A stretch of DNA of 64,000 nucleotides, from IMG/VR virus record IMGVR_UViG_3300044615_001997; one strand, 5' to 3'. The position numbers and the translations under genes are program-made. The stretch comes from a virus. The first letter of the stretch is position 1. The number at the start of each line of letters is the position of its first letter. A model generated the notes under the pieces. That model saw nothing but the letters and a program-made list of their open reading frames with translations. It was not told the origin of the DNA and ran no database searches. Below are positions 10,387 through 26,813 of this stretch, piece after piece.

Positions 10387-13300
10387 ATGTCTGCATACGA
10401 ATATTTAACAGTAAATAGTTTGACTACTTATCCGTTTAGAGACGGTAGAGCTGTTAATTCTATTCAACCTATAGATGCGGATGTTTTTTTAGACATTCTT
10501 TTTGTTGTTTATGACCCGACGATAAAACGTCCTTACATAAAACAAATAAAGTCTGAAGACGGAGGAGTGTCTATAGATTTTCATGATGTAGACGGAGATC
10601 TTAAAATTTTTACAGTTGAAATACCTTCGGCTGAATTTGTAAGTCATTATAAAAATTTTGATAAATCTTTTTTTGGATATATACCGAATGAATATAGGCC
10701 TAAGGCTGCAGTTAAATTAGTGTTTGGTCAGGGTATTTCTAAGATAGCAGATGTTCAATCTACCGTCGTATATACTCCCGATGAAACAGAGTTATCGCCA
10801 TCAGCAGTACAATATTCTGTCCCAGAGGTTTCTACTTTAGAGTTTGAGTCTTGGTTCCCGGACTTTGATAGTAAGAACTATAATCCTAGCGCAGGGCAGG
10901 ATATAATTTCTGTAAAAACTTATTTAAGGGAAGAAGAAGTTAAAATGCGTTATGGGTTTAATAACGTATTTAATTACTTAGCTCCGAGAACAATGTTTTT
11001 AGACGTAGCTAGGGGAGCTGGGCTGGGGCTGTACGACCCATGCGATAATATCCCACCGCACGATTTAATCACTAGAATAAATCAAGTTGAACCTGACCCA
11101 TCAGGTAATATTTATTTCAAAGTATCAGATTGTCATTCATTAAGATTGTTGACTGACGATGAGCGAAACAGCGCATTGGAAAGAATTTTGGCTGACGGTA
11201 CTGACTACGTTAATTTTAATGTTAAACATTATTTAAAATTTTGGGATCAACTACCTTATCAAAACTATAATGAAACTATTTCACCTAACGGAAAAAACGT
11301 TAATATTTTGGGGGACGGTCAAAACGGCACAATTAATTCTATTAATCATGGATTTGTTTTAGAAAATCACTGTAAACCTAAATGTCCTCATGAAAATTTA
11401 AATGCTTTTGCTGAATATTTAAACCGAGTAAAAGATGGAGTATCTGAACTTTTTAAAGTGGTTGAAAACCCTATTGAGACTTGCGGTTACGCCACTATCA
11501 ATGGAGCTATTTTAACAGCTACTAGTTTTTGTGACCAAAATATAATAAATTCTAATTGGCTCGAAGCTCCTCTGTGTAATCAAGGATTTAAAAAATATTT
11601 TCATGAAGGTAGAAAAATTAAAATTCGTTATAATAATGCTACTTTTTATAATCCTGAAATAGTGGAAGTAATCGAAGGTCAAAACGGTTTAAACACCCAG
11701 ATTGTGTTAAACCAAGAACTTCCAGATTTTCTACCAGGAGAACAGTATTTATTTAAAGTTTTAGACTTTGGTTTAGTTAATAAATTAAATTTTGAAATCA
11801 TTAAACATAATAATGCATTAATAACCACAAACTCACCATATATTGAGTTTAACTATGGTACTGTAGAGGCATTTAATAATGATGATGAATATGTTACATT
11901 TATAACAACAGTTACCGTTGTATATAATCCAAGTGAAGAAGAAATAACTGTCGATTTTACTTCTGCAGTAAACGATATAACTACCTTAATAGATACTTCG
12001 GTTAAGGTAAAATATCCCGACGGTGAAATACGTTACGAAGAAACGGAAGCGGTGGTACCTTGTAAGGGTTATGCTATTTGGGAAGCTATTTTTTATGTTC
12101 CTTGTAGTCCTGAGCTTCCCGCACCTCCAAATGAAGGACATGTTATAATTTCAGTGGTAAATCGCAGCACGGGAGAAATTTTAGAGAATGCTCCAAAAGA
12201 AGTAAAATTAAATAGTGCTAATTGTGTTAACATTGATATCAAGACAATACGAACCTCAGCTAAAGAAAACGATTTATTTAAATTTAACATAGTAAAAGCT
12301 TTAAATTTAAGTGATGTTGCAAACATATCTTTTGCGGGAAATATTCCTGCTTGGTTGAATAGAGACACTTCTTCTACTGGTGCAGTTATTCCAGGTATTG
12401 AAGATAATGAAGGATACCACCTTTGGGGGACACCAACGGCAAATAATCAAGGAATTTTAAATGAAGAGTTTTCTATAGATATAACGATAACTGCTTCTGG
12501 TGTGTTTAGAACAACATTATTTTTAAGCTATATCGCAAAACCTAGAATAATTTCACATACAAATGGACAAATTATAGAAATAAACCCTCCAGATACATTC
12601 ACTAGAACTTACACACAAGGATCACCGTTAATTAGAATAAATGCAACCAACACCCCAATTGATTATAGATTTGAATCTGCGATACCTGGTTTTGGTCAAG
12701 CTGGCGCAAATTCTAATAAATTTATAGGTAGATATGGGTATAATCCAACATTTGTTTTTCCAATAACTTATCCAGTTAGACTGTTTGCCATAAATAGTGC
12801 ATCTTCTGAGGAGGATGAACTGTATGTAGATATTTTTGTAAAAGTTTATAATGTTGGGCAGACAGCTTCAACAGCTTTTCAAGATATTGCATATTGTTTC
12901 ACTATTCCAAACCCAGATTCAGCAGCACTAACATTAATTTCTACACTACCTTTATGGTTAAATTTTGATAGAAATGCTGCCGAGTGTAATTTGAGCGGAT
13001 TAAATAGTTCAAATATTTCTGTTATTGAGCGCGTGGTTATTCGATACGATTATGCCAATGGCTTTGAAAATAGAGAGTATTCGATAGGCTACAGGGCACG
13101 CCCTGTTATAACTTACCCACCCGAGCAAGTTGGAAACAATATTTTCACATTAGAGTTACGACCCCCAGACTACACAGTTTCAGGGCTTTCTAAAGTTTAT
13201 AACGAGCAAAATCCTTTAATTAGTGTAAAAATTTTAGATGCCTCTAGTACCGGATTAGTTTACTCAGCCGAAGGACTACCTACAGGCTTAGAAATAAATG

Positions 13301-16300
13301 AATCTGGTAAGATTATAGGACAAATAGATGAGTCGGTTATTCCTGGAGATTATCTCATAACCTTAAGAGTGGCTGATCCGGCTTTTTCCGGAACATTAGG
13401 AATAGCGGTACGACAGATCAAATTGATTTTAATTGCCGATGAAAAATTGTTTATAGCTAGAGAAAACTCTAATTTTTGTTTAAAGTTTACTGAATTAGCT
13501 TCTGCATCTAGTTATACAGTAAAAGATTGGTTAGATGGAAAACCAACTTGGCTGACTGAAGCTAATAGAGTTGGAGCAGCTTGTCATTTAACTAATTCGG
13601 ATAATTTGAAGCCGAGCGGTGACTTAAGTAAAGACTATAGATTTACATTGGCGTACATCACAGCAACTAATCCACCCATACAGTTAGAAGTGAACTATCT
13701 TTTAAGGTATATAGCCAAACCAAGAATATTGTATCCACAAAATGGAGAAGTTTTTCAAATAGCTTCCGAAGATTTATCAGAGGTGGTATTTACTGAAGAA
13801 AATCCATTACTGTCTTTTGAAGTAGTCAATGATCCCACTAATTATGAAATAACTGGACTGCCATCAGGATTAAGTTTGGTAAATGGAAAAATTGTGGGAG
13901 CTGCTACAAACGCTAATCCTGTAGGAGATTATAATGTTACTTTGTATGCTAGCAATACAGCAGGTGTTTCTAGTATTAGTATAAAAATTAGCATAAAAAA
14001 TATCACTATTCAAAGAGCTTTTCAGCTTGATGCATTTTGTTATAAAATCACCGGAATTTCAAACGCACTATACTATTCTTTAGAGGGCGATAAACCAAAT
14101 TGGTTAACCTTCAATCCAGCTTCAAATGCTGTTTGCCCTGTAGGAAATTTATATGGAACACCTCCCATCAGCGCAAATCAAAGTGCATCATATGATTTAA
14201 TATTGGTAGCACACAGAGGTAGTGGGGAATTAAGACAAAGCTTTAAACTAGAATATTATGCTAGACCAAATATAACTTATCCTTTACCAGACACCGTTTT
14301 TACAATTTCACCACCAGACTATAATAACCTTTTATTCACAAGCACAAATCCACTATTCAAAATAGAGGCAGATAATAACCCTACTTCTTATAGGGTAAAT
14401 GGTTTTCCTGAAAGAACTTTTCGCGTAGACGGTAATGGTAATATTATAGGCAGTTCTGGTGCCACCATAACAGACACACAAATACCAGTACAGCTTTATG
14501 CTCGCAATGAGGCAGGTGAATCTACTCCTGTCAGAATCTTTATAGTTATTACAAACCAGATTAACACAATTACTTTTAATTATACAGCAGCTACACCTTG
14601 TGCTACTGGAGCAAAATATAAATTTGAACTCGAGGATCAACCTGAAAGCATCACATTAGTAGGGCATCCAACTTGGATAACATTTAACCCGAGTTTAACA
14701 ACCGATTGTAATTTAACTTTCGGCAATAATAGACCTGTTTTAACTACATCACAAACGATACCATTAACTCTTACTAGAAATTATCGTGGAGGCAATACCA
14801 AAGAAACATTTAATTTATTAATCACCACAATACCAATTATAACTAATCCAATAAACACAACTTTACCGACAAACAGAATACGTTATGTTATATCGCAGCC
14901 AGATTTTAATAATAGAATTTATTCTGTACAGTCACCACTTTTAACAATTACTGCCACAAATTCTCCAACAAACATAACAGCTTCAGGATTACCATCAAGT
15001 TTAAGTGTAGTAACTTCTGGGCCTGATATAGGCAAAGTAATAAGTGTCAATCAAAGTATTCCAGTATCTGAATTAGGCTTATTCATAGTAACCGCCACAG
15101 CTTCTAATGGGGCAGGTAGTTCTATGACAGTTGTTTTTGAGATCGAGGCTAAAAACGAAATAATAGAAATATCCACACGTCAAGGCGAGGCCATCAATAA
15201 TGAATTTTGTAAACTTATTACAAGGGACAGAGCAACATCTTATTCTATTGTAGCCGGAACATTATTGAATGGTTTAAATTTTTCAGGCTCTACAGATGCA
15301 GGCTGTAACTTTTTTGGAGTACCTTCGGGAGGTAATGACGAACTATCTATTTTAGATGTGAGAAGTAATTATGTAGGAGGATTTTCAACTTTTAGAATAA
15401 GATTTTCACATATAAATAAACCCAGCATTGTTAGATTTACGAGAAACGGCAATACTATTATAGATGACGCTTTATCTGTTTTACCTGGTGTTTACGTGGG
15501 CACGACTTTTACGGAAGAACTACCACTATTTTCAATAGATACTACAGGAAATCCTACCAGTTTTTATGCTGAAGGTTTCCCGCAAAATTCAACTTTATCT
15601 ATAAGCTGTAATGGTAAAGTTATAGGAACTATTAATCAAGCCGCTGCAGGTAAATATACTGTGATAATAACAGCTGTAAATGAGGCAGGCGAATCAGAAA
15701 AAAGAACAATATATTTAGACTTTTCTCAAGCAGTTCCAGTAATCACGTGGGAAAATCCTGACGATATTACACATCCAACCCCGCTTAATTCTATAGATCA
15801 TTTAAACGCTACAGCTAATGTTCCTGGGTCATTTGCATATTTACCACCAGCAGGCAACATTCTTTCTGCCAGTACGCAGCCAAGGGTGCTTACAGTTACG
15901 TTTACACCTACAGATCAAATTACTTACGCTACAGTAGCCAAATCCGTAACGATACGAGTTTTCAAGGCAACTCCCACAATAACGTGGAACACTCCATCAG
16001 CTATAAGTTACTATACCGCATTAACTGCAGCACAATTAAACGCAACGGCAAACATAGCAGGTACATTTGTATATAGTCCGGGGTTAGGACACATATTTAA
16101 TGCTGGGACGCATTCTATAACAGTAACATTTACACCTGTAGATACTACAAATTATAATTCTGCGACAAGGCAGACGGAATTAGTAGTTAACAAAATTACT
16201 GTTACCCCGAGCAATATCTACTGGTCTACTCCATCAAGTATTGTCTATGGTGTTGCTTTGAGCGGTACACAATTGAATGCGTTAGCTAGAATCAGTTCTA

Positions 16301-19200
16301 CTGATGCCACATCACCAGCAATACCCAGTAATTCAAGTTCTTATGTTTATTCTCCTGTTCTCGGAACAGTTTTGGCGGTGGGAACCCATAATTTAACTGT
16401 GACATTTGTTAGCAGCGATTCTACCAATTTTACTGTTACCCCCGTACAAAAAGTTGTAACAATTTCTGTGGTGGCTCAAGCGCCACCCATCACTTGGAAT
16501 ACACCAGCAGCCATTACCTATGGCACCCTGCTTAGTAGTACTCAATTAAACGCAACCAGTACCATAGCAGGATTAACTTATACTTATACTCCTACATTCG
16601 GAGCATTATTGAATGCAGGAACACGAACACTATCTCTCACGGTTTCAGGAAACCCAAACTACGCTTCAACTACCGTGACGAGAGAAATTTTAGTAAATAA
16701 AGCAGCTTCTTCCATTACATTTACATCTCCAACCTCAGGGAGAGTAGGAGATCACATATTATTAACTACCGAGAAAACAGGTTCAACCAGTCCGGTTGTT
16801 TATAGCTCGGCTTCTACAGCTATTATAAATATTATTAATGTAAATAGGGCTAATTTGTTAACTGCAGGAACGGCTTCGGTAACAGCTCAAGTCGAGGAAG
16901 ATGCCAACTTTTTAGCCGCAGCAAGATCTCAAAACATCACCATCACTCGTGGTCTTAGTACTGTAACTATAACTTCCACAAATTCTACTAAAGTAGGAAA
17001 TACATTTACTTTAGCTGCTACAGCCACCGGATCTACAGGCCAAATATCTTTTAGTAGTAGTAACGCTAATTTGTTGAGTATAACTGGAGGTTCTATCGCA
17101 ACTGCTCTTGGGTCTGGGCAAGTCACACTCACTGCCTCTGTGGCTGCAACCGCAAATTACGATTCTGGCAGCAGTACACAAACTATAACAATCGCTAAAG
17201 GTGATTCAAACATTGCCTCGATAAATATGGTAAATCTTTTCCAGGGAGAAACCTCAACAATCACAACACAAAGAACAGGCTCCACCGGCGCAATCACATA
17301 CACCAGCAGCAACCCCGCAGTCATAAGTATTTCTGGTAACATAGCTACATTTAATTCCGGAGGAACAGCTAATATCACAGCAACATTGGCGGAAGATAAT
17401 AATTATTTGGGCACCACTAGAACACAATCTTTCACAGTTACACCCAAATCAACAGTAACAATAACATGGTCAGGTGTAACAACTTTAACTTTAGGGCAAA
17501 CTGTGCAGGTTATACCTTTTTCAACTACCGCCCCAGCTTTAGCTGATTCTCTCATAACTGCAACAACCGCAGATTCTACAATTATAAGAGTTATAACTGT
17601 AGGTGGTATAGTAGGACCTGTACTAGAAGCAATAAAGCCAGGAACTACGCAAATAACGCTCAGAGTTCCAGGCACAATAGATAGACAAGAGGCTACTTTA
17701 ATTGTAGCCATGACAGTTCAAAAAATTTCCAGCACATTAACGATAAATAATTTAATTAATAATAATTTAACTGTTCCATTATCTAGCACCAGCTATTTCA
17801 TAGGATATTCTATTTCCCCAACATCCCACGTTTATGGTGGTACTGCCCCAGCATTTGATAATTTAACAAGTAGTGTTACCTCGGTTGCCACTCGCGACCC
17901 AAATAGTTCTTTTGGTCACGTTAATTTACTTTCTGTTGGAACTACCACAATTACATTTAATAGACCAACTAATACATTTTGGGAAGCTGTCTCTAGAAGT
18001 TTTACATTAACAGTAACCAAAGGTTCTTCTACGTTAAACATTACTGGGCCTACTTCCGCCAAAGTCGGGCAATCTGGAACAATAACGTTTACAAAAACAG
18101 GATCTACAGCAACTCCAGTTTTTACAGCTGCCAGCGGAACAGGATTAATTATAACAGGCAACGCCGTAAGCTATACAAAAGCAGGTTCCCAAACACTCAC
18201 AGGAACTTTAGCTGGGGACACTAACTATGATGGGATTACTTCAACAAGAACATTAAATGTTTCTAAGGGGGATACGTCTTTATCTTTTGAGTATTTTGTA
18301 AATAGTGTATGGACTGCGACTAAACCCACCTCTGTCCTTCCAGGTCAAAGCTTGAGAATTAGACGAGTTGTCTCAGGCTCTACGGGTACAGTTACTTTAA
18401 CCGCCACACCCAGCGAAAACTTAGGAGCAACATCTGAATGCGTTGGAAGTAATTCAGGTGTTTGTGAAGCCGTAATCGTATTTAACAACACATCTCTAGG
18501 CGTTCAAACTATTACTTTAAGCGTTGCTACAGATACAAATTATAATGCAGCAACAGTTACAACAAACATAACAATACAAAAAGGAAGTTCCACATTAACT
18601 GTAGGAACTCCCAATAGCTTAACTTATGGCACACCAGTAGCTCTCAGCAATATTCAATTAACTAGAACAGGTACTACTGGAGCACCAGTATTCAGTACCA
18701 ATGACAGTAACATACAATTTACACAGCAAGGATTAACTTTTTCTTCAGTCAATACGTTGAGTAATCCCGCACCGAACCCTGGGTCTGGAACATACAGTGT
18801 TACGTTAGCTGCAGATGACCAGTATAATTCTATTACAGCCAGTAAAACAGTGACATTACTTAAAGGAACACCGACTTTCACTTTTGAGTATAGTGCAGTA
18901 ATTTCTGGAGGCGCTTCATTCACATGTGCTACGCCTATGACTAACGTCAAACCTAATATCCAGGCAGGAGCCCGTAGTGTGCTTGTTAGAATTAATCCGA
19001 ATATGCAGCCTAATCAATTCGCAACTTTCTCTTTCTCTGCGACTGGTGGAACAGCTCAACCGATACCTCTAGCTTGTAATTTTTATAACTTCTTGTATAC
19101 CTCCCCGCAAACAACAGGGCAAGTAACGGTAACGATAAATTATTCGGGAGATGGCAACACTAACGCAACTTCAACTACTATAACTTTTAATATCGTTTAA
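10387..19200 (+). CDS. giant Ig-like repeat tail fibre/adhesin (paralog 2)
   Basis: 2937 aa. Shared paralog N-terminus, then GLP.GL....G.I.G repeats, four ITW.TP..I.Y...L...QLNA repeats and Thr/Ser-rich Ig-like repeats. Confidence 0.7.
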   Translation: MSAYEYLTVNSLTTYPFRDGRAVNSIQPIDADVFLDILFVVYDPTIKRPYIKQIKSEDGGVSIDFHDVDGDLKIFTVEIPSAEFVSHYKNFDKSFFGYIPNEYRPKAAVKLVFGQGISKIADVQSTVVYTPDETELSPSAVQYSVPEVSTLEFESWFPDFDSKNYNPSAGQDIISVKTYLREEEVKMRYGFNNVFNYLAPRTMFLDVARGAGLGLYDPCDNIPPHDLITRINQVEPDPSGNIYFKVSDCHSLRLLTDDERNSALERILADGTDYVNFNVKHYLKFWDQLPYQNYNETISPNGKNVNILGDGQNGTINSINHGFVLENHCKPKCPHENLNAFAEYLNRVKDGVSELFKVVENPIETCGYATINGAILTATSFCDQNIINSNWLEAPLCNQGFKKYFHEGRKIKIRYNNATFYNPEIVEVIEGQNGLNTQIVLNQELPDFLPGEQYLFKVLDFGLVNKLNFEIIKHNNALITTNSPYIEFNYGTVEAFNNDDEYVTFITTVTVVYNPSEEEITVDFTSAVNDITTLIDTSVKVKYPDGEIRYEETEAVVPCKGYAIWEAIFYVPCSPELPAPPNEGHVIISVVNRSTGEILENAPKEVKLNSANCVNIDIKTIRTSAKENDLFKFNIVKALNLSDVANISFAGNIPAWLNRDTSSTGAVIPGIEDNEGYHLWGTPTANNQGILNEEFSIDITITASGVFRTTLFLSYIAKPRIISHTNGQIIEINPPDTFTRTYTQGSPLIRINATNTPIDYRFESAIPGFGQAGANSNKFIGRYGYNPTFVFPITYPVRLFAINSASSEEDELYVDIFVKVYNVGQTASTAFQDIAYCFTIPNPDSAALTLISTLPLWLNFDRNAAECNLSGLNSSNISVIERVVIRYDYANGFENREYSIGYRARPVITYPPEQVGNNIFTLELRPPDYTVSGLSKVYNEQNPLISVKILDASSTGLVYSAEGLPTGLEINESGKIIGQIDESVIPGDYLITLRVADPAFSGTLGIAVRQIKLILIADEKLFIARENSNFCLKFTELASASSYTVKDWLDGKPTWLTEANRVGAACHLTNSDNLKPSGDLSKDYRFTLAYITATNPPIQLEVNYLLRYIAKPRILYPQNGEVFQIASEDLSEVVFTEENPLLSFEVVNDPTNYEITGLPSGLSLVNGKIVGAATNANPVGDYNVTLYASNTAGVSSISIKISIKNITIQRAFQLDAFCYKITGISNALYYSLEGDKPNWLTFNPASNAVCPVGNLYGTPPISANQSASYDLILVAHRGSGELRQSFKLEYYARPNITYPLPDTVFTISPPDYNNLLFTSTNPLFKIEADNNPTSYRVNGFPERTFRVDGNGNIIGSSGATITDTQIPVQLYARNEAGESTPVRIFIVITNQINTITFNYTAATPCATGAKYKFELEDQPESITLVGHPTWITFNPSLTTDCNLTFGNNRPVLTTSQTIPLTLTRNYRGGNTKETFNLLITTIPIITNPINTTLPTNRIRYVISQPDFNNRIYSVQSPLLTITATNSPTNITASGLPSSLSVVTSGPDIGKVISVNQSIPVSELGLFIVTATASNGAGSSMTVVFEIEAKNEIIEISTRQGEAINNEFCKLITRDRATSYSIVAGTLLNGLNFSGSTDAGCNFFGVPSGGNDELSILDVRSNYVGGFSTFRIRFSHINKPSIVRFTRNGNTIIDDALSVLPGVYVGTTFTEELPLFSIDTTGNPTSFYAEGFPQNSTLSISCNGKVIGTINQAAAGKYTVIITAVNEAGESEKRTIYLDFSQAVPVITWENPDDITHPTPLNSIDHLNATANVPGSFAYLPPAGNILSASTQPRVLTVTFTPTDQITYATVAKSVTIRVFKATPTITWNTPSAISYYTALTAAQLNATANIAGTFVYSPGLGHIFNAGTHSITVTFTPVDTTNYNSATRQTELVVNKITVTPSNIYWSTPSSIVYGVALSGTQLNALARISSTDATSPAIPSNSSSYVYSPVLGTVLAVGTHNLTVTFVSSDSTNFTVTPVQKVVTISVVAQAPPITWNTPAAITYGTLLSSTQLNATSTIAGLTYTYTPTFGALLNAGTRTLSLTVSGNPNYASTTVTREILVNKAASSITFTSPTSGRVGDHILLTTEKTGSTSPVVYSSASTAIINIINVNRANLLTAGTASVTAQVEEDANFLAAARSQNITITRGLSTVTITSTNSTKVGNTFTLAATATGSTGQISFSSSNANLLSITGGSIATALGSGQVTLTASVAATANYDSGSSTQTITIAKGDSNIASINMVNLFQGETSTITTQRTGSTGAITYTSSNPAVISISGNIATFNSGGTANITATLAEDNNYLGTTRTQSFTVTPKSTVTITWSGVTTLTLGQTVQVIPFSTTAPALADSLITATTADSTIIRVITVGGIVGPVLEAIKPGTTQITLRVPGTIDRQEATLIVAMTVQKISSTLTINNLINNNLTVPLSSTSYFIGYSISPTSHVYGGTAPAFDNLTSSVTSVATRDPNSSFGHVNLLSVGTTTITFNRPTNTFWEAVSRSFTLTVTKGSSTLNITGPTSAKVGQSGTITFTKTGSTATPVFTAASGTGLIITGNAVSYTKAGSQTLTGTLAGDTNYDGITSTRTLNVSKGDTSLSFEYFVNSVWTATKPTSVLPGQSLRIRRVVSGSTGTVTLTATPSENLGATSECVGSNSGVCEAVIVFNNTSLGVQTITLSVATDTNYNAATVTTNITIQKGSSTLTVGTPNSLTYGTPVALSNIQLTRTGTTGAPVFSTNDSNIQFTQQGLTFSSVNTLSNPAPNPGSGTYSVTLAADDQYNSITASKTVTLLKGTPTFTFEYSAVISGGASFTCATPMTNVKPNIQAGARSVLVRINPNMQPNQFATFSFSATGGTAQPIPLACNFYNFLYTSPQTTGQVTVTINYSGDGNTNATSTTITFNIV

Positions 19201-19225
19201 GTACTATATTTGATACTATATTTTT

Positions 19226-20548
19226 ATGGCAATTTATACGTTAGATTTTTTAAATAAAAATAGGTTTAGAAGATTCCCCTTCAAGGCGGAAACCTCATTG
19301 ACTTCTATTAATGGACAAGTACTAAGCAATGACTTGATGGTAGGGTTGTCTATAACCACAGCCTCAGGTAGAACTAACATACATATAAGTCAAATATACG
19401 TAAAAGATCAGTTTATTTCTGTGGTATTATCCGGGACGAGCAATGGTAGAAAAATTAGTTTAGGTAGATTTGTTGGAACGATATTAGAAGATTACTCTGT
19501 TTTATACTTAGAGCAGTTTGAAAGATTTATTAACGGCATTTTAATAATCGGTAGTGTTACCGAGATTTTAAAAATGCGTGGTGGGTATTTTTTTAGCCCC
19601 CAAGCTACAGCTATAGAAGAATCTACTATTTTTCAATACACACCACCACGTGTTAAAAGTATTGTCAACGATTCAACACATTTACGGGGCAGGGTTGAGT
19701 TTGGAACTTTAACCAATCTAGTAAAGACAAAAGAAAATCAAAATATAAAAATAAGTACAACCACAGGCACACAGATAGCTAGTTTGGCGGATAAATCTTC
19801 TCAATTTAGAAATTGTGCCACCCCACTTATTTATTCAATAAATAATGCTGTTCCATTTAAAGATTCTTCTAATGATTACCCTATTTTAGACGGTAACATT
19901 TATATGGTTGGAATTAAACCTATTGTTTTTTATGGTGAGTTCGGTGCTCCAGGAGAAGAATCAAGTGTAGGAGGAACCATATTGGCACAGACTATAGATA
20001 TAAATAACAATCCATTAACTCTAGATACTTTATGTACTGCGAGAAATAAAGTTTTGCCTCCGATAAATCCAGTTTATTTAAACAACAGACCTGACAATAA
20101 AACTGTTACACCTACATTTGTAGGTAAAGAAAATTATTACACTAAATCTTTTATAAAACCTGTTAATTTTATAAAAGTAGTAGAACCTGAATTTTTGTCA
20201 TGGCCTCAATTTTTTAAAAATTTTACTGACTATGTTACAGGATTATCTCAAGGGCAGCAAAAAACCATTGTAACTGTACCTCCAGGAAAATCTGGAGTTA
20301 TTAAGAGAATAGTGTTGAGAAATTCTCCAACGCAAAATAATCTCGCCGGAGCCGGGCTACAGATAATTTTTAGAAAAAATAACGCCACTATTACAGCGTT
20401 AGATGCTTTTAATTTAAATCAAGACCAAGCCATAACTATTAATGGTGTAGAACTACCGTTTGTGGCTGGAGATACTTTCAGTGTATACTTAAATCAAGTA
20501 ACCGGCTCCAACCCCTACATGTTACAAACAATTCTTTTTTATAGATAA
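19226..20548 (+). CDS. tail fibre/adaptor paralog 3
   Basis: FLNKNRFRRFPF N-terminal motif, IYSINNAVP...GNIYM. Confidence 0.5.
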   Translation: MAIYTLDFLNKNRFRRFPFKAETSLTSINGQVLSNDLMVGLSITTASGRTNIHISQIYVKDQFISVVLSGTSNGRKISLGRFVGTILEDYSVLYLEQFERFINGILIIGSVTEILKMRGGYFFSPQATAIEESTIFQYTPPRVKSIVNDSTHLRGRVEFGTLTNLVKTKENQNIKISTTTGTQIASLADKSSQFRNCATPLIYSINNAVPFKDSSNDYPILDGNIYMVGIKPIVFYGEFGAPGEESSVGGTILAQTIDINNNPLTLDTLCTARNKVLPPINPVYLNNRPDNKTVTPTFVGKENYYTKSFIKPVNFIKVVEPEFLSWPQFFKNFTDYVTGLSQGQQKTIVTVPPGKSGVIKRIVLRNSPTQNNLAGAGLQIIFRKNNATITALDAFNLNQDQAITINGVELPFVAGDTFSVYLNQVTGSNPYMLQTILFYR

Positions 20549-20550
20549 TT

Positions 20551-21339
20551 ATGGCTGAATATAACATATTACCTTGGCAAAATGAAAATAGCCTATCTAG
20601 CTATCCGTTGGTTTTTCCATTGGATTATGATGGCTTTATTGTAGATGCTTCCTTTATACAATTTGACTACTTTGTACCGACGTTAAACACAATTTTTGTT
20701 GGGCAAGATTATATCGAGATCACTATAACCTTTGATAGCGGAGAGCTGACCCAAGTTTATTATAATTCTCAATACAATGCTGGTGTAAGAGAGATTAGGT
20801 TTATTGAGGATAACGCGCGCTATTTAGGCTGTATTACTGTTGGTGAAAATACTTCATTTTTGTGGGAAAATTTTGTAGGACAAAAGTTGATAAAAAACAT
20901 ACCTTTTTTGGCTAGCGTAGTTAAAAGCATACCTTCAAAAGACGCTGTTTATACTCTAGACAGCCTATACGGAGACATTGTTTTTGGTGTAGAGCTAGAG
21001 GAGGTTACAAATTTTTCGTCCATAGGCGGATTTAATTTTCAAAATAACTTAATAGGTGGTTTAGTGTTTCAAAGTACTGGTGGAGGTAGTAATATATTTT
21101 ATAATTATAATATTGGAAAAAATGCCTTGATTTTTAATGCTGTAGCTAACCACACTTTCCCAGAAGAATCAATATGGGCTTTAAAAAGAATTAATTTAGT
21201 TCCACCTATAAATAACAACATTTATTTAGCCAGCAACGATGTGTTAAAATTTAAGTCTATCAATAATCAAAGACTACAAATTTCTTTGGCGGGAGAATCA
21301 GCAACCGGAGCATCTATAGTTCCAACTCTTACATCATAA
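20551..21339 (+). CDS. tail fibre/adaptor paralog 4
   Basis: WQNENSLSSYPL motif, LKRINLVPPINNNIYL. Confidence 0.5.
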   Translation: MAEYNILPWQNENSLSSYPLVFPLDYDGFIVDASFIQFDYFVPTLNTIFVGQDYIEITITFDSGELTQVYYNSQYNAGVREIRFIEDNARYLGCITVGENTSFLWENFVGQKLIKNIPFLASVVKSIPSKDAVYTLDSLYGDIVFGVELEEVTNFSSIGGFNFQNNLIGGLVFQSTGGGSNIFYNYNIGKNALIFNAVANHTFPEESIWALKRINLVPPINNNIYLASNDVLKFKSINNQRLQISLAGESATGASIVPTLTS

Positions 21340-21340
21340 T

Positions 21341-22234
21341 ATGGATAATGTAATTGAATGGTTAAATGAAAATGAGCTAAGGGCTTACCCTCTTATCGAG
21401 GGCGAGAGATCTGAACTTGTACCTGAAAATTTTCTATTAGACTTGATTTTATTGGTTAATGAAAATGTTTCAGATCTGCATTTAGTAAAGTTAATGAATA
21501 TAGCTACTGAAACAGAGGGAATCTCGGTTCAATTTTCTGGAGAAGGGAATACTTTTTTTGTACCTCGCAATCAAGCCTACCCATTGTACGTAAGGAATCA
21601 AAACGGCAGTTTAGCGGTTTTTGGCCCAGGTGCAGAACAATTTATGGATAATTTAAACACTTCGGTAATTCTCTGTGATATACCTGTAGAGCCTTCCAAC
21701 ATTTTTAAGTTTGATATGGCTTGGCTCGGGGTGTCTAGTATATCTACGTACAAGAATTATCAGTCTATTGAAGATAGCTATGTACCTTTGACTCCTCTAC
21801 AATTAAGTAGCGTTGGCAACTATTCTCTCGAGGAAGACGTTGAATTTTATCCTGGGTATAATTATAAGATAGACTTTAGTGACGGAAAAATAAACATGAC
21901 TGCTGGGTTTAAATTAGGTATGGCTATGGACTGCACTACTCAATTTATATCTCCAGAGTTAAAAGATTGTGACAAAGTCATCTCCTACATCAACGGTATT
22001 CCTGCAGACTCTGCCGGAGCTTTTAGATTTACTTCCGGAGAAAATATTTATATGTTCGATGGAACTACTGTAAATGAAGATATACCTGACACTAATCCTA
22101 AAATAGAGGAGTTGTATTACTCACAAGGCAAACCACCTATTTCAAGAATTAATCCAAATACTCTATTTATCGGGTTGACATTTCTCGAATCTGATTTATG
22201 TTCACCTATACAACTTTTACCTACTAATAATTAA
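21341..22234 (+). CDS. tail fibre/adaptor paralog 5
   Basis: WLNENELRAYPL motif, ISYINGIPADSAG. Confidence 0.5.
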   Translation: MDNVIEWLNENELRAYPLIEGERSELVPENFLLDLILLVNENVSDLHLVKLMNIATETEGISVQFSGEGNTFFVPRNQAYPLYVRNQNGSLAVFGPGAEQFMDNLNTSVILCDIPVEPSNIFKFDMAWLGVSSISTYKNYQSIEDSYVPLTPLQLSSVGNYSLEEDVEFYPGYNYKIDFSDGKINMTAGFKLGMAMDCTTQFISPELKDCDKVISYINGIPADSAGAFRFTSGENIYMFDGTTVNEDIPDTNPKIEELYYSQGKPPISRINPNTLFIGLTFLESDLCSPIQLLPTNN

Positions 22235-22235
22235 T

Positions 22236-22559
22236 ATGAATATAAGACCTGAGAAAAAAAGAATGATTCTCACTAGCGTTAATCAAATTTTAACCCTGAT
22301 TAAAAGCAACGATAAGCTTCAAAATTTACCTAGATTTAAGGGTTTAAAAGACAAAGAGCTCAGCACAACACCATCTAAAACATGCAATTGTGCTAGGCCT
22401 ATAAGAACTCCTGATGTAAACAAGCAAATTTTGGAAGGTGTTTTATCTTCTTTAACATCTAAAGATTTTCAAGATATAAAAGATGCTTTGGGGTTGGATG
22501 AATTGTGTTATTATAATAGAAATACCAAAACCAACAAATTAGAGATGATTTGTGTTTAA
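22236..22559 (+). CDS. hypothetical protein
   Basis: 107-aa ORF tightly packed in the operon, with a CNC motif. Confidence 0.55.
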   Translation: MNIRPEKKRMILTSVNQILTLIKSNDKLQNLPRFKGLKDKELSTTPSKTCNCARPIRTPDVNKQILEGVLSSLTSKDFQDIKDALGLDELCYYNRNTKTNKLEMICV

Positions 22560-22561
22560 CA

Positions 22562-23200
22562 ATGTCTGAACAAACCCCATTCTATTCAAATACTGAAGAC
22601 GGTAAAACTGTTCCTGTGAATTTAACTGCCTTTCACGGGATTCAAACCGTTAAAAAAAGTTTATTGGTGGGAAGAAAAGTAGAACCTGCAGATTTTTTTA
22701 TTTCTTCTACAGCAGGCTTTGGGTTTCCAGGTATACCGTTTGTTCCCGGGGAAGCAAACCCAGCTAATTTTTGCCAAGGGGAAGATGTGATATTCGATGC
22801 GTTTCTGTATTACCAAGGCGAAGCCGTAACTCAAAATGATTACGATATATTAGTGCAAGTAAAGTCTTCTTTGCGTAGTCCCACCGCATTTTGGGTAGGA
22901 GAAATTCAGAACGGCGTCTACCCTGAAGAAAATCCAGGTTATTACACGATATGGCTGCCTGCAGAGAAAACAATGACGTTGTTTGCTGGTTCTTACAATT
23001 TAAATGTATTTTTATCTCAACAGGTAGGTAAGGGTTCAGGACCTCACGATAGAAAAATTTCTCTAATCGATATTGCTTTTAATATTGAGTATTGTGGCGG
23101 AAGTGAAAATCCTGAAAATGTGAGACTGACTGGAGATTTACCTCATAGAGCTTCTATAAAAAGAACCTGGCCTAATGCTCCCGACATTATACAGGGTTAA
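22562..23200 (+). CDS. hypothetical protein, possibly structural beta-sandwich
   Basis: Last gene of the structural block. ATG 22562 preferred over the upstream near-cognate start. Confidence 0.5.
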   Translation: MSEQTPFYSNTEDGKTVPVNLTAFHGIQTVKKSLLVGRKVEPADFFISSTAGFGFPGIPFVPGEANPANFCQGEDVIFDAFLYYQGEAVTQNDYDILVQVKSSLRSPTAFWVGEIQNGVYPEENPGYYTIWLPAEKTMTLFAGSYNLNVFLSQQVGKGSGPHDRKISLIDIAFNIEYCGGSENPENVRLTGDLPHRASIKRTWPNAPDIIQG

Positions 23201-23830: not shown

Positions 23831-24025
23831 ATGATAAAATTTATATTTATTTTATTTTTATTTTTTAGTTTTTTAATCTCTATAGTTTCTTTAAACTGTA
23901 AAATTAATAAACTTACGTTAGCTACAGAAAAATCGAGAAATGAATTAACTGTGTTAAATAATCAATTAAAAGAAAGTAATGTTTTAATTGGTGAAATTGA
24001 CACTGCTTTAGAGCTGCCAGAATAA
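23831..24025 (+). CDS. small membrane-anchored coiled-coil protein
   Basis: ATG 23831. Hydrophobic MIKFIFILFLFFSFLISIV followed by a heptad-like tail. Confidence 0.5.
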   Translation: MIKFIFILFLFFSFLISIVSLNCKINKLTLATEKSRNELTVLNNQLKESNVLIGEIDTALELPE

Positions 24026-24028
24026 CCG

Positions 24029-24265
24029 ATGCATATGGAATTAAATACTCCTATCGACTCTGAAAGTATCAGACAAAAGAACAAGCTTTCGAGAGAAAAT
24101 GCTCAACTACATATATTAGCTGAGGATATGGCTAGAGTGTTAAGGAGGTGGCTTGATGACTCCAACATGAAATACTTCTGGACGAGTGAAGATAAAGAAG
24201 CTCTAAATGCCTATGATAGATTTAAAGAAGATGTTATTTGGAAACAATATAACCCCCCCAGTTAA
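24029..24265 (+). CDS. hypothetical protein
   Basis: 78-aa ORF in an operon arrangement. Confidence 0.55.
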   Translation: MHMELNTPIDSESIRQKNKLSRENAQLHILAEDMARVLRRWLDDSNMKYFWTSEDKEALNAYDRFKEDVIWKQYNPPS

Positions 24266-24288
24266 TTGCTCCTATTTTTTGTTATAAT
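24250..24288 (+). promoter_or_regulatory. putative promoter, extended -10 TGTTATAAT with upstream TAACCCCC box
   Basis: TATAAT at 24283-24288, at the head of the non-coding region. Confidence 0.5.
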
Positions 24289-24418
24289 ACTATGCTGACG
24301 GTTTGTCGGTCTATTAATTGAAAATACTTTCTTAATAGACCTATTCTTAAATAGCAATATACTTTTTTTAAAATTTATTTTACTGGTTAATTTTTAATAA
24401 TTTTTAGCTGGCAGCTAT

Positions 24419-24612
24419 TGTTGCGCTCGGGTTATATATAACAAAGATCTATTATATATACGCTCAACGGGAATGACTCCCACCACATAAAGGAACAACT
24501 TACCTGGTTTAGTTGTATGGCGATAATCTGAAATGGTCCGCAGCTATTTCAGCAAACCGCTCGCTAGATAGTCGATGTGCGCAAATTGACTATATTAGAA
24601 CGTGGCGCAACA
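24419..24612 (+). ncRNA. putative multi-stem structured RNA (~195 nt)
   Basis: Closing helix TGTTGCGC/GCGCAACA encloses five hairpins, e.g. CTGAAATGG/CTATTTCAG, ATAGTCGAT/ATTGACTAT, ACAACT/AGTTGT. Confidence 0.5.
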
Positions 24613-24616
24613 CCCA

Positions 24617-24645
24617 TTGACTTTTAGTGTGTATTTATATATACT
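24617..24645 (+). promoter_or_regulatory. sigma70-type promoter
   Basis: TTGACT (24617-22), 17-nt spacer, TATACT (24640-45), immediately before the first hairpin of the large RNA. Confidence 0.7.
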
Positions 24646-24650
24646 AATAA

Positions 24651-25366
24651 TCTGGCCGTGTGCGGCCATAAGATAACCCCAGTAATGGGGACAAAGTGAA
24701 CTCTCATCACCGTGAGAGTTTGCGGGGATCTTCGATCCCTCTGAGCACACAAGGAGGTAATCATCTTTTCTGCCTGTTGAGGGTTAGAAAAGTTGCTCGT
24801 CGGTTGAGACCCGATGGGTGAGTGCGAAAGTACAATAAGGAAACCTTTAGCTGATATGCGAGCAACTGGACTGGTAATCCAGCAATCGCGTTTAGCAGCC
24901 TAGAAGTTGTCGCTAGAGCAATCTAGAGGCAACTACGAAACAGTGACGACCAGTCACAGGACTAGTAGCGCATCGATTCCCTCAAAAGGGGAGTTGGCGG
25001 AACCCGCAAGCACTAGTTCGGAAATCTCGGGTGAACATGACTTGTCTCGAAAGAGACTCATTAACCAAAAAGGAAAGCCTTGCGGCTTCTGCAGTGAAAG
25101 ATGACTTCGTCCCAAGTTACGCTTGGGGTTTGCTGGCTCCCTAAGGCCAGTATGATAGAGGTTAGGATAATCTTTGGATACCGTTGCTGGTATTGGAGGG
25201 TGCGTAGCCTTCACAGAGAGGAACTAGCGAACAACTGTGGTTGAAACCCTGACTCAGGGAAATTGAGTCGTCATTGCTGGGTACGTTGCAAAACAACGTG
25301 GATAAAACGGAGAATCAATATACTCCGTCAGAGACCAGTACTTATAGCTGTAATCTCAAGCTATAT
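24651..25366 (+). ncRNA. large structured ncRNA, GOLLD-like (~715 nt)
   Basis: No credible ORF, dense hairpins with GNRA loops (CCCCA-GTAA-TGGGG, GTCTC-GAAA-GAGAC, GTGC-GAAA-GTAC). The 3' part CATTG...GTGGATAAAACGGAGAATCAATATACTCCGT...GCTGTAATCTCAAGC resembles my recollection of the GOLLD 3' domain. Not verified with a covariance model. Confidence 0.6.
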
Positions 25367-25370
25367 AATT

Positions 25371-25655
25371 TTCTCGACTTGGCGAGTATAAATAGGATGT
25401 AAGCCAAGAGCGTTGCAGGTATGAGTATCTGCAGAATTCGGAGCGGTAGACCTTCTAGAGGTTACGGCTCCCTGGCCCAGACTTGAGTCACTTCAGGTCA
25501 AAAGTGTACTGAGGCACGTGAGTGAACCATACAACAGGTACATTGCCAGAACAAAAACGGGGGTGCTTCTTAATTTGTTGCCCGTATACTTTCAGGGAGG
25601 TGTGGAGATCAAAATCATTGATTACTCTTGTACGGAAAAATCTCGTACACCTCCC
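25371..25655 (+). ncRNA. putative structured RNA (boundaries uncertain)
   Basis: Stems CTTGGC/GCCAAG, GCAGGTA/TATCTGC, GAGC.GTA.ACCT/AGGTTAC.GCTC, ACGGG/CCCGT, and GGGAGGTGT/ACACCTCCC (25595-25655). Confidence 0.4.
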
Positions 25656-25661
25656 AAACTT

Positions 25662-25783
25662 TTGTAGGATATGCTGAGGGTTCTGGAGGATATGGTGGGG
25701 ATCATGGGCTCCAGCACGATAGGTTGCTGCCAGTCGTGGCATCGGTAAGCATATATAATTGAGAGTGATGCACTCACCTACAA
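25662..25783 (+). ncRNA. putative structured RNA module
   Basis: Closing helix TTGTAGG/CCTACAA. Inner stems ATATGCT/AGCATAT, TGGAG/CTCCA, CACGA/TCGTG, GAGTG/CACTC. Confidence 0.45.
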
Positions 25784-25788
25784 CTTAC

Positions 25789-25912
25789 TTTGAATGCGTG
25801 ACGAAAGTCTCGTTACGAATAGTGCTAAAAAATAACTCGCCCATAACTATACACCGACAGGATTAGGCGAAAGTCGGGGAAGCAATAATCCACGTTAGCA
25901 TACGCATTCAAA
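25789..25912 (+). ncRNA. putative structured RNA module
   Basis: 11-bp closing helix TTTGAATGCGT/ACGCATTCAAA. Inner TGCTAA/TTAGCA, GGATT/AATCC and two GAAA tetraloop hairpins. Confidence 0.5.
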
Positions 25913-26027
25913 AATTTGTTTTGGCTTACTGAGCTGCTGTGGTGAGCTCGGCAAGGAACCTACAAAGTTTCACAACAGTGAGTGCCACAGCACTTGTGAA
26001 ACTAGGAACCAGCCAAAACAAATTTTT
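25910..26027 (+). ncRNA. three-way-junction RNA with complementary (kissing) loops
   Basis: 17-bp perfect closing helix. Two hairpins whose loop regions GCTGTGG and CCACAGC are complementary. Confidence 0.6.
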
Positions 26028-26034
26028 AGCTATT

Positions 26035-26365
26035 TGAGGTTAGCCTCATAAGGTGCACGATGGCCGACTACCATCTAGTGAGATCCTACTCATGATTGAA
26101 GCCAGGTCGTTCTGGTAAAATGGGGCTGGTTACCGCAACCCGCTGACGGTCAGCGAGAGTCAGAAAGTTTAACTTTCTTCAGGCGAGGCGCGTTTATGTA
26201 TCTAGGACAGGCAAGATCAGTCGTGTCTGCATGATGGTACTGCGTCGTAGACCTTGAGACACGACAGCCGCAAGTTTCGAACGGGTAGCCTCCTCCGTTA
26301 ATGGGTGACTAGGGAACATGTGCGGCGGCGCATAGGACTCCAAAAGTAGAATCAATAAACCCGCC
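26035..26365 (+). ncRNA. putative structured RNA module(s)
   Basis: TGAGG/CCTCA, GATGG/CCATC, TGAAG/CTTCA. Closing helix GGCGcGTTTAT/ATAAACcCGCC (26187-26365) encloses GTCGTGTCT/AGACACGAC. Confidence 0.45.
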
Positions 26366-26407
26366 AAAAATTTTTGTGGTATCTAATACATACACACATA
26401 CCACTGA

Positions 26408-26447
26408 CCCAGCAGTGAAGCGACACAATCTGGGCACTTTTTTAGCT
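26408..26447 (+). terminator. possible terminator ending the RNA array
   Basis: CCCAG/CTGGG stem followed by ACTTTTTTAGCT. Confidence 0.35.
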
Positions 26448-26457
26448 ATTAAACATT

Positions 26458-26778
26458 ATGGACAACACAATATTCAATTATGGCGGAATTCCTGTAGTCA
26501 TTGACGTTTCATATGACTACGAGGAAGATTGTACAAAAGCCTGGCACGATTTGAATCATGCCGAAACAGGCGAAAATATCACAACTATCGATTGGTCACC
26601 TTATTCTATTCCTTCTAATGAGGAAGTTGAGTTATGGTTGGGATTAGGTGCCCCAGGGGGAGTTTATCGACAAGGAGAGCACTACGAGTCTCACCACAAC
26701 TTCAATTCCGAAGTACTCCAACTCGTTATAGAGGAAGAGGCTACCGGTAAAGAACCTACCTATATAATTAAAAGATAG
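26458..26778 (+). CDS. hypothetical protein
   Basis: 106-aa acidic ORF with an ATG in an A/T-rich context. Confidence 0.6.
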   Translation: MDNTIFNYGGIPVVIDVSYDYEEDCTKAWHDLNHAETGENITTIDWSPYSIPSNEEVELWLGLGAPGGVYRQGEHYESHHNFNSEVLQLVIEEEATGKEPTYIIKR

Positions 26779-26784
26779 ATCGTG

Positions 26785-26813
26785 TTGACAAACAACCGAC
26801 ACAACTATATGTT
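26785..26813 (+). promoter_or_regulatory. possible sigma70-type promoter
   Basis: Perfect TTGACA (26785-90), 17-nt spacer, imperfect -10 TATGTT. Confidence 0.4.

Follow-up and report, generated by a model that had tools for sequence, protein, structure and literature searches.

Three-way-junction RNAs such as the purine riboswitch and the hammerhead have parallel arms and loop-loop contacts, and in T4-type phages the PeSL sequences are promoter/stem-loop cassette joints. The packaging RNA (pRNA) of phage phi29 is known only from phi29-like phages, where it is encoded near the left end of a genome of ~20 kb, at positions 147-320 (PMC5066667). GOLLD RNAs form giant RNA-only cages. In the nanocages of GOLLD and ROOL, quaternary kissing loops were visible by cryo-EM and have covariation support (PMC12286853). 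Furthermore, orphan structured RNAs have been described near self-cleaving ribozymes as well as within tRNA/GOLLD/ROOL islands of phages (Weinberg et al. 2015 and 2017; PMC5737381, PMC6765202), and self-cleaving ribozymes have been proposed as processors of polycistronic transcripts (PMC6765202).

Here we describe a three-armed RNA domain of 118 nt, which is encoded on the plus strand at positions 25910-26027 of the window, that is, of the whole 64,000-nt stretch of DNA that was analysed. The window belongs to an IMG/VR virus contig of 121 kb with an estimated completeness of 62%, and the element lies at 79.5 kb of this contig. An earlier note on this DNA had set the element beside phi29 pRNA. 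Like domain I of pRNA, the element measures ~118 nt, has paired 5′ and 3′ ends and a three-way junction, and carries complementary loops. In principle, these loops could link molecules hand in hand in the manner of pRNA. Unlike pRNA, to which it has neither sequence nor profile similarity, the element is accessory within its clade, lies in mid-genome and has very unequal arms. Moreover, its comparative data favour tips closed to tetraloops, and it has no link to packaging. A kinship or function like that of pRNA is not supported: RF00044 gave no match at E ≤ 10 in window positions 24000-26800 or in the whole 121-kb record, and membership of the phi29 pRNA family is rejected.

The element is closest in kind to the orphan structured RNAs that neighbour self-cleaving ribozymes or occupy the tRNA/GOLLD/ROOL islands of phages. 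Like them, the element is a small, covariation-supported motif in a phage non-coding island, next to Pistol and GOLLD. Unlike them, it is none of the described motifs and is so far known from one narrow metagenome clade. The search against Rfam 15, in which all ribozyme classes were included, gave nothing that overlaps the element at E ≤ 10. We regard it as very probable that the element is a genuine, conserved structured RNA domain of the GOLLD-Pistol island. The family has not yet been described; its members are about 110-120 nt in size and fold independently. The motif is real, new and narrowly distributed, and it belongs to a clade of large phages (~195 kb) known from metagenomes.

The phage genome encodes a baseplate wedge protein, helicases and an SbcC-like nuclease. 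Upstream of the window, at 16755-19742 and 20917-22779 of the contig (G000; loci L098 and L099), split proteins resembling the β and β′ subunits of multisubunit RNA polymerase are encoded, as in jumbo phages. Because 121 kb correspond to 62% of the genome and because baseplate wedge and RNA polymerase genes are present, the genome that carries the element is that of a large myovirus-like phage of ~195 kb. A search with PF03237 for a terminase or packaging ATPase gave no match in the genome or in five relatives.

The plus strand of the element folds with a minimum free energy (MFE) of -46.1 kcal/mol (z = -5.45), and 0/200 shuffled sequences were equally stable. In the window copy, the minus strand folds equally well (-46.6 kcal/mol). 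The positions of the helices and of the neighbouring features are collected in Table 1. As the earlier note had claimed, the window copy is closed by a perfect helix (P1), the two arms of which are 17 nt each and 100% complementary. Hairpin 1 (H1; CUGAGCU/AGCUCGG) was also correctly placed; it consists of 6 Watson-Crick pairs and one U-G wobble (U21-G41), the latter of which had been overlooked. The 10-bp stem of hairpin 2 (H2; AGUUUCACAA/UUGUGAAACU) was likewise found. What had been drawn as its loop, 18 nt in length, encloses a 5-bp stem of its own, AGUGC/GCACU. Thus, every feature of the earlier drawing is located where it had been drawn, but the drawing lacks one helix, P3 (GGAACCU/AGGAACC), which lies between the junction and hairpin 2. 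The three-way junction itself, which is formed by P1, H1 and P3, holds and is backed by covariation in the homologues. Its linker strands are 2, 3 and 0 nt. Because there is no nucleotide between their 3′ strands, P3 is predicted to stack on P1. The same strand lengths predict that H1 lies alongside the other arm, as in the purine riboswitch and the hammerhead. Unlike in those RNAs, the arms of the element differ about three-fold in length, conserved sequences of a ligand pocket or a catalytic core are missing, and there is no Rfam match.

Table 1 Coordinates of the element and of the surrounding RNA island in the window
Feature	Position	Strand	Remarks
GOLLD RNA	24653..25362	+	3′ domain 24958-25362: RF02032, 141 bits, E = 1e-38; gathering score 150
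Pistol self-cleaving ribozyme	25372..25439	+	Rfam; 9 nt after GOLLD
Block B, structured RNA (~190 nt)	25590..25783	+	directly before the element in homologues except the window lineage
Module A	25784..25909	+	structured insertion of 119-126 nt (the 119 nt being 25784-25902) between Block B and the element; in the window only, among fetched loci covering the position
P1 5′ arm	25910..25926	+	inner 12 nt (25915-25926) conserved; outer AAAAA fully paired in the window lineage only
H1 hairpin	25929..25951	+	6 conserved pairs including the U-G wobble; apical R-CUGUGGU-R
CUGUGGU, H1 apex	25937-25943	+	invariant
P3 5′ strand GGAACCU	25955..25961	+	alignment A7
H2 arm	25966..26003	+	9-10 bp stem, invariant ACAGUG internal loop, inner stem
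H2 inner stem AGUGC/GCACU	25981-25994	+	capped by CACA
CCACAG, H2 tip	25985-25990	+	invariant
P3 3′ strand AGGAACC	26004..26010	+	alignment A7
P1 3′ arm AGCCAAAACAAAUUUUU	26011..26027	+	invariant except one C->U, which gives a G-U pair
Tail motif ACAAAUUUUUAGCUAUUU	26018..26035	+	overlaps the end of P1; invariant
Second tail copy	26436-26452	+	5 nt before the ATG at 26458

The homologues were reached through the small ORFs that flank the island, with which a large protein collection was searched. The downstream ORF (26458-26778) led to loci L072-L075, the upstream ORF (24029-24265) to L076-L083, and members of the protein clusters of the flanking ORFs to L084-L094. Eight further distinct homologues of the element were obtained, all on metagenome contigs; together with the window copy, they give nine distinct sequences (alignment A7). 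The covariance models R1 and R2 score the element at 96-149 bits on the plus strand (96-146 bits for the eight further sequences) and at ≤25 bits on the minus strand. It was found in L076/77/78, L080/81, L082, L087, L088, L089 and L092. In L090/91 the element was matched in a sequence that is cut at the 5′ end, and L084 and L085 gave a score identical to that of the window copy (148.7 bits).

Element cassettes are present in some lineages and missing from others with the same backbone. For example, L072 and L074 possess GOLLD, Pistol and Block B without the element, and the relative G006 possesses only GOLLD and Pistol. MAFFT suggested an H1-like remnant in L074; this was rejected because it is not significant (local alignment, P ~0.1). 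The single-sequence model R1 found nothing in 21 loci with an upstream phrog_16527 gene or in 21 whole related IMG/VR records, and model R2 found nothing in 31 related IMG/VR records. Similarly, blastn of positions 25440-26460 against 50,697 GenBank phages gave no match. Exact and degenerate DNA patterns derived from the element gave none in IMG/VR or the JGI metagenome collection, and patterns from Block B gave none in the metagenome collection or IMG/VR. The Pistol pattern matched only G006 in IMG/VR. When 185,579 prokaryote genomes were scanned with a pattern, three matches were obtained, all of which were rejected by the covariance model; one of these, L095, resembles a chance match when read.

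On alignment A7, 93.5% of the cells of the nested structure are paired. Both-sided changes were observed at six pairs, three of them in H1 and the others in P3, H2 and the inner stem. The double changes in H1 are U-G to G-U, G-C to A-U and C-G to U-A. In P3, the pair C50-G97 changes to U-G and then to U-A; in H2, the pair 58:93 changes from G-C to G-U and then to A-U. The inner-stem pair 74:83 is U-A in five sequences and G-C in four. In addition, the AA/AA internal loop of P3 in the window is paired as AA/UU in 6/9 sequences. The covariation score lies above 500/500 shuffles and every slid control. All homologues that were folded have the same shape (z from -4.7 to -5.8), and in 7/8 of them the plus strand is more stable by 1.2-10 kcal/mol. 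Read from the opposite strand, the G-U pairs would turn into A-C mismatches; the RNA therefore comes from the plus strand. Thus, compensatory changes and strand-specific G-U pairs, which are expected of structured RNAs in general, were both found; since six pairs are changed on both sides and the G-U intermediates fit the plus strand only, we conclude that the element is a genuine RNA. Between lineages whose stems differ, approximately 25 unpaired nucleotides stay the same, among them those of both arm tips.

The island occupies an ORF-free, G+C-richer stretch (~24270-26457) between plus-strand genes. Every locus with the element has GOLLD and Pistol upstream of it, and the order in every homologue is GOLLD, Pistol, ~150 nt, Block B, element and tail. 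The element is not a part of GOLLD, because the RF02032 match ends at 25362 and Pistol and ~470 nt intervene. Other identities were also rejected. No ORF longer than 32 aa crosses the element, which argues against a coding role; no tRNAs were found, and a tRNA or tmRNA identity was rejected; and the element is present in a single copy in the genome, which argues against a repeat or MITE. RNAalifold predicted a long-range helix of 5 bp in which the beginning of the Pistol 3′ product pairs with the AGCU in the tail; this helix was discarded because it is not kept in the window or L082.

The spacing from GOLLD to Pistol is 6-12 nt in every related locus, and in L076 ~190 nt are inserted between them. 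The two RNAs span 24958-25439 in the window, 4290-4774 in L070, 346-819 in L072, 242-721 in L074, 6927-7595 in L076, 6952-7433 in L080, 2116-2595 in L082, 1222-1700 in L087 and 4943-5421 in L092. As judged from the sequences, this adjacency implies that the 3′ processing of GOLLD would be defined by the ribozyme. Our literature search found no report linking GOLLD with Pistol. Block B is a multibranched RNA, which is present in all backbone-bearing relatives and shows both compensatory changes and plus-strand G-U pairs; it has no match in Rfam. Block D (window 26300-26457) is ~95% identical between lineages, and the protein identity of the neighbouring ORF is 69-72%. It ends with a hairpin and a second copy of the tail, UUUUUUAGCUAUUA, and the ATG that follows has no Shine-Dalgarno sequence. 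In the ENA scaffold L073, a run of N (1349-1447) coincides exactly with the variable segment that separates Blocks B and D, which fits a polymorphic or mosaic site that was difficult to assemble.

The homologues show which part of P1 is conserved. Only the inner 12 bp are conserved, and the corresponding pairs 9-20:107-118 of A7 are never broken. In the outer part, the pairing is lost in 2-5 of 8 homologues. The perfect 17 bp of the window are therefore specific to this lineage, in which the A-run accompanies the insertion of module A. In homologues, the element is directly followed by the invariant tail ACAAAUUUUUAGCUAU. The same tail follows unrelated hairpins in L074 and G006, which lack the element, and it also follows Block D. 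Directly 3′ of the tail, one of three unrelated modules was found: module Y in the window and L082, module X in L076, L087-L092, L072 and L074, and module Z in L080. Because the tail recurs at module ends, we consider it a mark of two things at once, namely where a structured unit ends and where modules are exchanged at a joint. The tail was rejected as a genome-wide promoter, since only 3 exact copies are present in 121 kb.

The joint motif can be written as CA(A/C)(A/U)UUUUUAGCUAUU and occurs at 26018-26035 and 26436-26452 of the window, 1658-1682 of L072, 1163-1177 of L074 and 5088-5105 of L070. At this motif, non-coding modules (X, Y and Z) and small-ORF cassettes swap between related phages. 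For example, L072 carries a cassette with a 74-aa Cys-rich ORF between 26-nt direct repeats (TTTAAATGTAGGTAGGCAGCsGAAA). Like PeSL, it is a short motif that recurs at joints where alternative modules swap between related phages. Unlike PeSL, the cassettes here are non-coding RNAs and no promoter is recognisable in the motif.

The explanation that we prefer, with a probability of roughly 0.45, is that the element is a conserved plus-strand domain which forms the 3′-terminal part of a non-coding RNA released by Pistol, as a terminator-like or stability end. The island would be transcribed as a single precursor. Pistol self-cleavage would then separate GOLLD from ~0.5-0.6 kb of downstream RNA, and the element may be the 3′-terminal domain of this released RNA. 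The long P1 together with the U-run could act as a terminator-like stop and as a barrier to 3′ exonucleases, and the invariant tips C-UGUG-G and C-CACA-G are putative recognition surfaces. The role in defining or protecting the 3′ end is tentative. In its favour, the U-run and AGCUAU stay constant as the partnering A-run decays; the tail also follows other hairpins, as described above; and differing modules are joined right after it. The arrangement resembles an intrinsic terminator in that a helix is followed by a conserved U-run (an invariant U5 after the conserved 12-bp helix). However, the helix closes a branched domain with an A-U-rich base beside the U-run, unlike typical intrinsic terminators, and a scan with the terminator consensus made no call. 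Furthermore, the second tail copy stands immediately before a start codon, which would be odd for an efficient terminator, and the sigma-70-like promoter (TTGACW-N17-TAYACT) before GOLLD is kept in only 3/6 lineages (the window, L080 and L082, but not L076, L087 and L092). In addition, the termination rules of the host may not hold here, because the phage has genes for a multisubunit RNA polymerase of its own. Finally, a 3′-end role alone leaves the ~25 invariant unpaired nucleotides unexplained.

These nucleotides include the two tips, and it is possible, if unlikely, that the tips CUGUGG and CCACAG pair with each other, either between molecules as head-to-tail dimers, rings or chains like those of pRNA-style self-association or within one molecule as a pseudoknot. 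In the window, GCUGUGG (25936-42) and CCACAGC (25985-91) are complementary as the earlier note had pointed out, and the longest Watson-Crick run is 7. On one sequence, such a loop-loop match is suggestive only. The conservation of this match was confirmed in part, and the loss of complementarity that the earlier note had named as a refutation was not observed for the core. The hexamers CUGUGG in the H1 tip and CCACAG in the H2 tip are invariant and complementary in 9/9 sequences, so that six core pairs (C28-G81 to G33-C76) and the pair U34-G75 can form in all nine. In contrast, the seventh Watson-Crick pair, G27-C82, is A-C in 7/9, and the extension by G-U pairs, although possible in the window, is inconsistent across the sequences, since 35:74 fails in 4/9. 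The six core pairs are constant, and covariation therefore speaks neither for the kiss nor against it. The H1 tip is fixed, whereas 8/14 stem positions below it vary; the H1 tip is therefore under selection for something. In the window, the loop duplex is calculated at -15.6 kcal/mol as compared with -5.8 kcal/mol for the competing inner stem, and a 3-bp stem with an 8-nt loop would accommodate the covarying pair 74:83. The neighbouring-island phage RNAs GOLLD and ROOL assemble via kissing loops (PMC12286853), and large assemblies from short RNAs are feasible (bioRxiv 10.64898/2026.07.01.735769). As with GOLLD and ROOL, complementary loop pairs would be the glue, and the element shares its island with GOLLD. 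Unlike the GOLLD and ROOL contacts, the putative contact of the tips shows no covariation and is predicted from sequence.

The variable nucleotides beside the tips bear on the same question. The pair U26-R35 is U-A in seven sequences and U-G in two, and R27-U34 is A-U in seven and G-U in two; both of these pairs and C28-G33 can always form. The MFE structures of L080, L076 and L092 have H1 closed to a UGUG tetraloop, and the inner stem is closed to a CACA tetraloop in all of the five relatives folded. Thus, the variable flanks, including the G75-C82 region, keep local pairs that close both tips, and by sequence comparison this variation fits local closure to UGUG and CACA tetraloops. A six-base kiss is possible provided that the top pairs open. 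The chance of such complementarity is P ~0.002-0.006 for this hairpin pair alone; however, an equivalent pair arises in 8% of shuffled 2.2-kb islands, and at the scale of the 64-kb window, there are 16 pairs of adjacent hairpins whose loops share 7 or more complementary bases, as compared with 9.5 in shuffles. Moreover, the arms are ~7 and ~19 bp in length and an intramolecular contact would need sharp bends. We therefore consider that, if the tips pair, an intermolecular contact is more likely than an intramolecular one. The fuller proposal, that the element is a small self-associating RNA which is co-expressed with GOLLD, released by Pistol and joined head to tail through its tips into rings or chains, seems improbable to us.

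A trans-acting small RNA or a protein-binding RNA would account for the unpaired nucleotides in another way: the tips and the invariant internal loops (ACAA and ACAGUG) would recognise a protein or an RNA of host or phage, and the complementarity of the tips would be incidental. The invariance of ~25 unpaired nucleotides despite the stem changes is what this reading needs, and a separable, lineage-variable cassette is what is expected of an accessory function. Furthermore, CUGUGGU is also present in the GOLLD 3′ domain (window 25235-25241; 6/6 lineages checked), and this copy is a second possible partner of CCACAG. However, the GOLLD copy sits inside a long-range helix of GOLLD, and the chance that a 7-mer recurs once in ~700 nt is ~0.04. 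We hold this reading to be doubtful.

A new self-cleaving ribozyme or another catalytic RNA is very improbable. A Pistol ribozyme is encoded ~470 nt away, the three-way junction has invariant junction and loop nucleotides, and intergenic regions near known ribozymes yielded twister-sister, hatchet and pistol (PMC6765202). However, many structured RNAs adjacent to ribozymes did not cleave (PMC6765202), the Rfam search at E ≤ 10 gave only the separate Pistol and no ribozyme over the element, and the sequence bears no mark of a cleavage site. An element that acts as DNA, such as a cruciform, a recombination site or a MITE-like inverted repeat, is scarcely credible. The window copy on its own would fit, since it is a perfect 17-bp inverted repeat of which both strands fold equally, and it lies at a hotspot of module exchange; nevertheless, the homologues show G-U pairs and intermediates and a more stable plus strand in 7/8, the outer part of the inverted repeat is not kept in them, only one copy is present in the genome, and target-site duplications are absent. 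Finally, a true packaging RNA of the phi29 type, which as a ring on the portal would dock the packaging ATPase, is extremely improbable, because only the size, the three-way junction and the two complementary loops speak for it, whereas pRNA is known only in phi29-like phages, this phage is ~195 kb and myovirus-like with the element in an accessory island, and L072, L074, G006 and 31 IMG/VR records lack the element, which would not be expected of an essential part of the motor.

The element lies in a locus in which GOLLD stands in a conserved operon-like arrangement with Pistol immediately downstream and exchangeable structured RNA modules thereafter. The element is the best defined of these modules beside GOLLD. 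It offers a putative co-expressed partner of GOLLD, a natural case for the role of Pistol in vivo and a candidate self-associating RNA. Should it be no more than a stability hairpin at the terminus, it would still mark the 3′ end of a new phage non-coding RNA released by a ribozyme. The significance would rise if the tips drive self-assembly beside the cage-forming GOLLD RNA: self-association, if true, would be a second independent RNA-only assembly, or a cargo or adaptor of GOLLD, from the same phage operon.

Further observations were made around the island. By eye, a segment of module A, CACCGACAG (25857-25865), is complementary to the H1 tip with 8 pairs and one bulge. In the relative G006, a phage tmRNA (103 bits; L070 2362-2867) and a tRNA are encoded just upstream of GOLLD. 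More distant phages carry tRNA arrays and two HEARO RNAs in the slot downstream of the phrog_16527 gene (L015 8248-9690, L005 3903-6039, L008 and L010). Because tRNA arrays and HEARO RNAs occupy the same slot, this slot is a general island of RNA genes. Elsewhere in the window, at 10387-19200, there is an ORF of 2937 aa, the homologues of which in relatives are 3302-3496 aa long and have He_PIG (PF05345) matches; its product is probably a giant tail or fibre protein.
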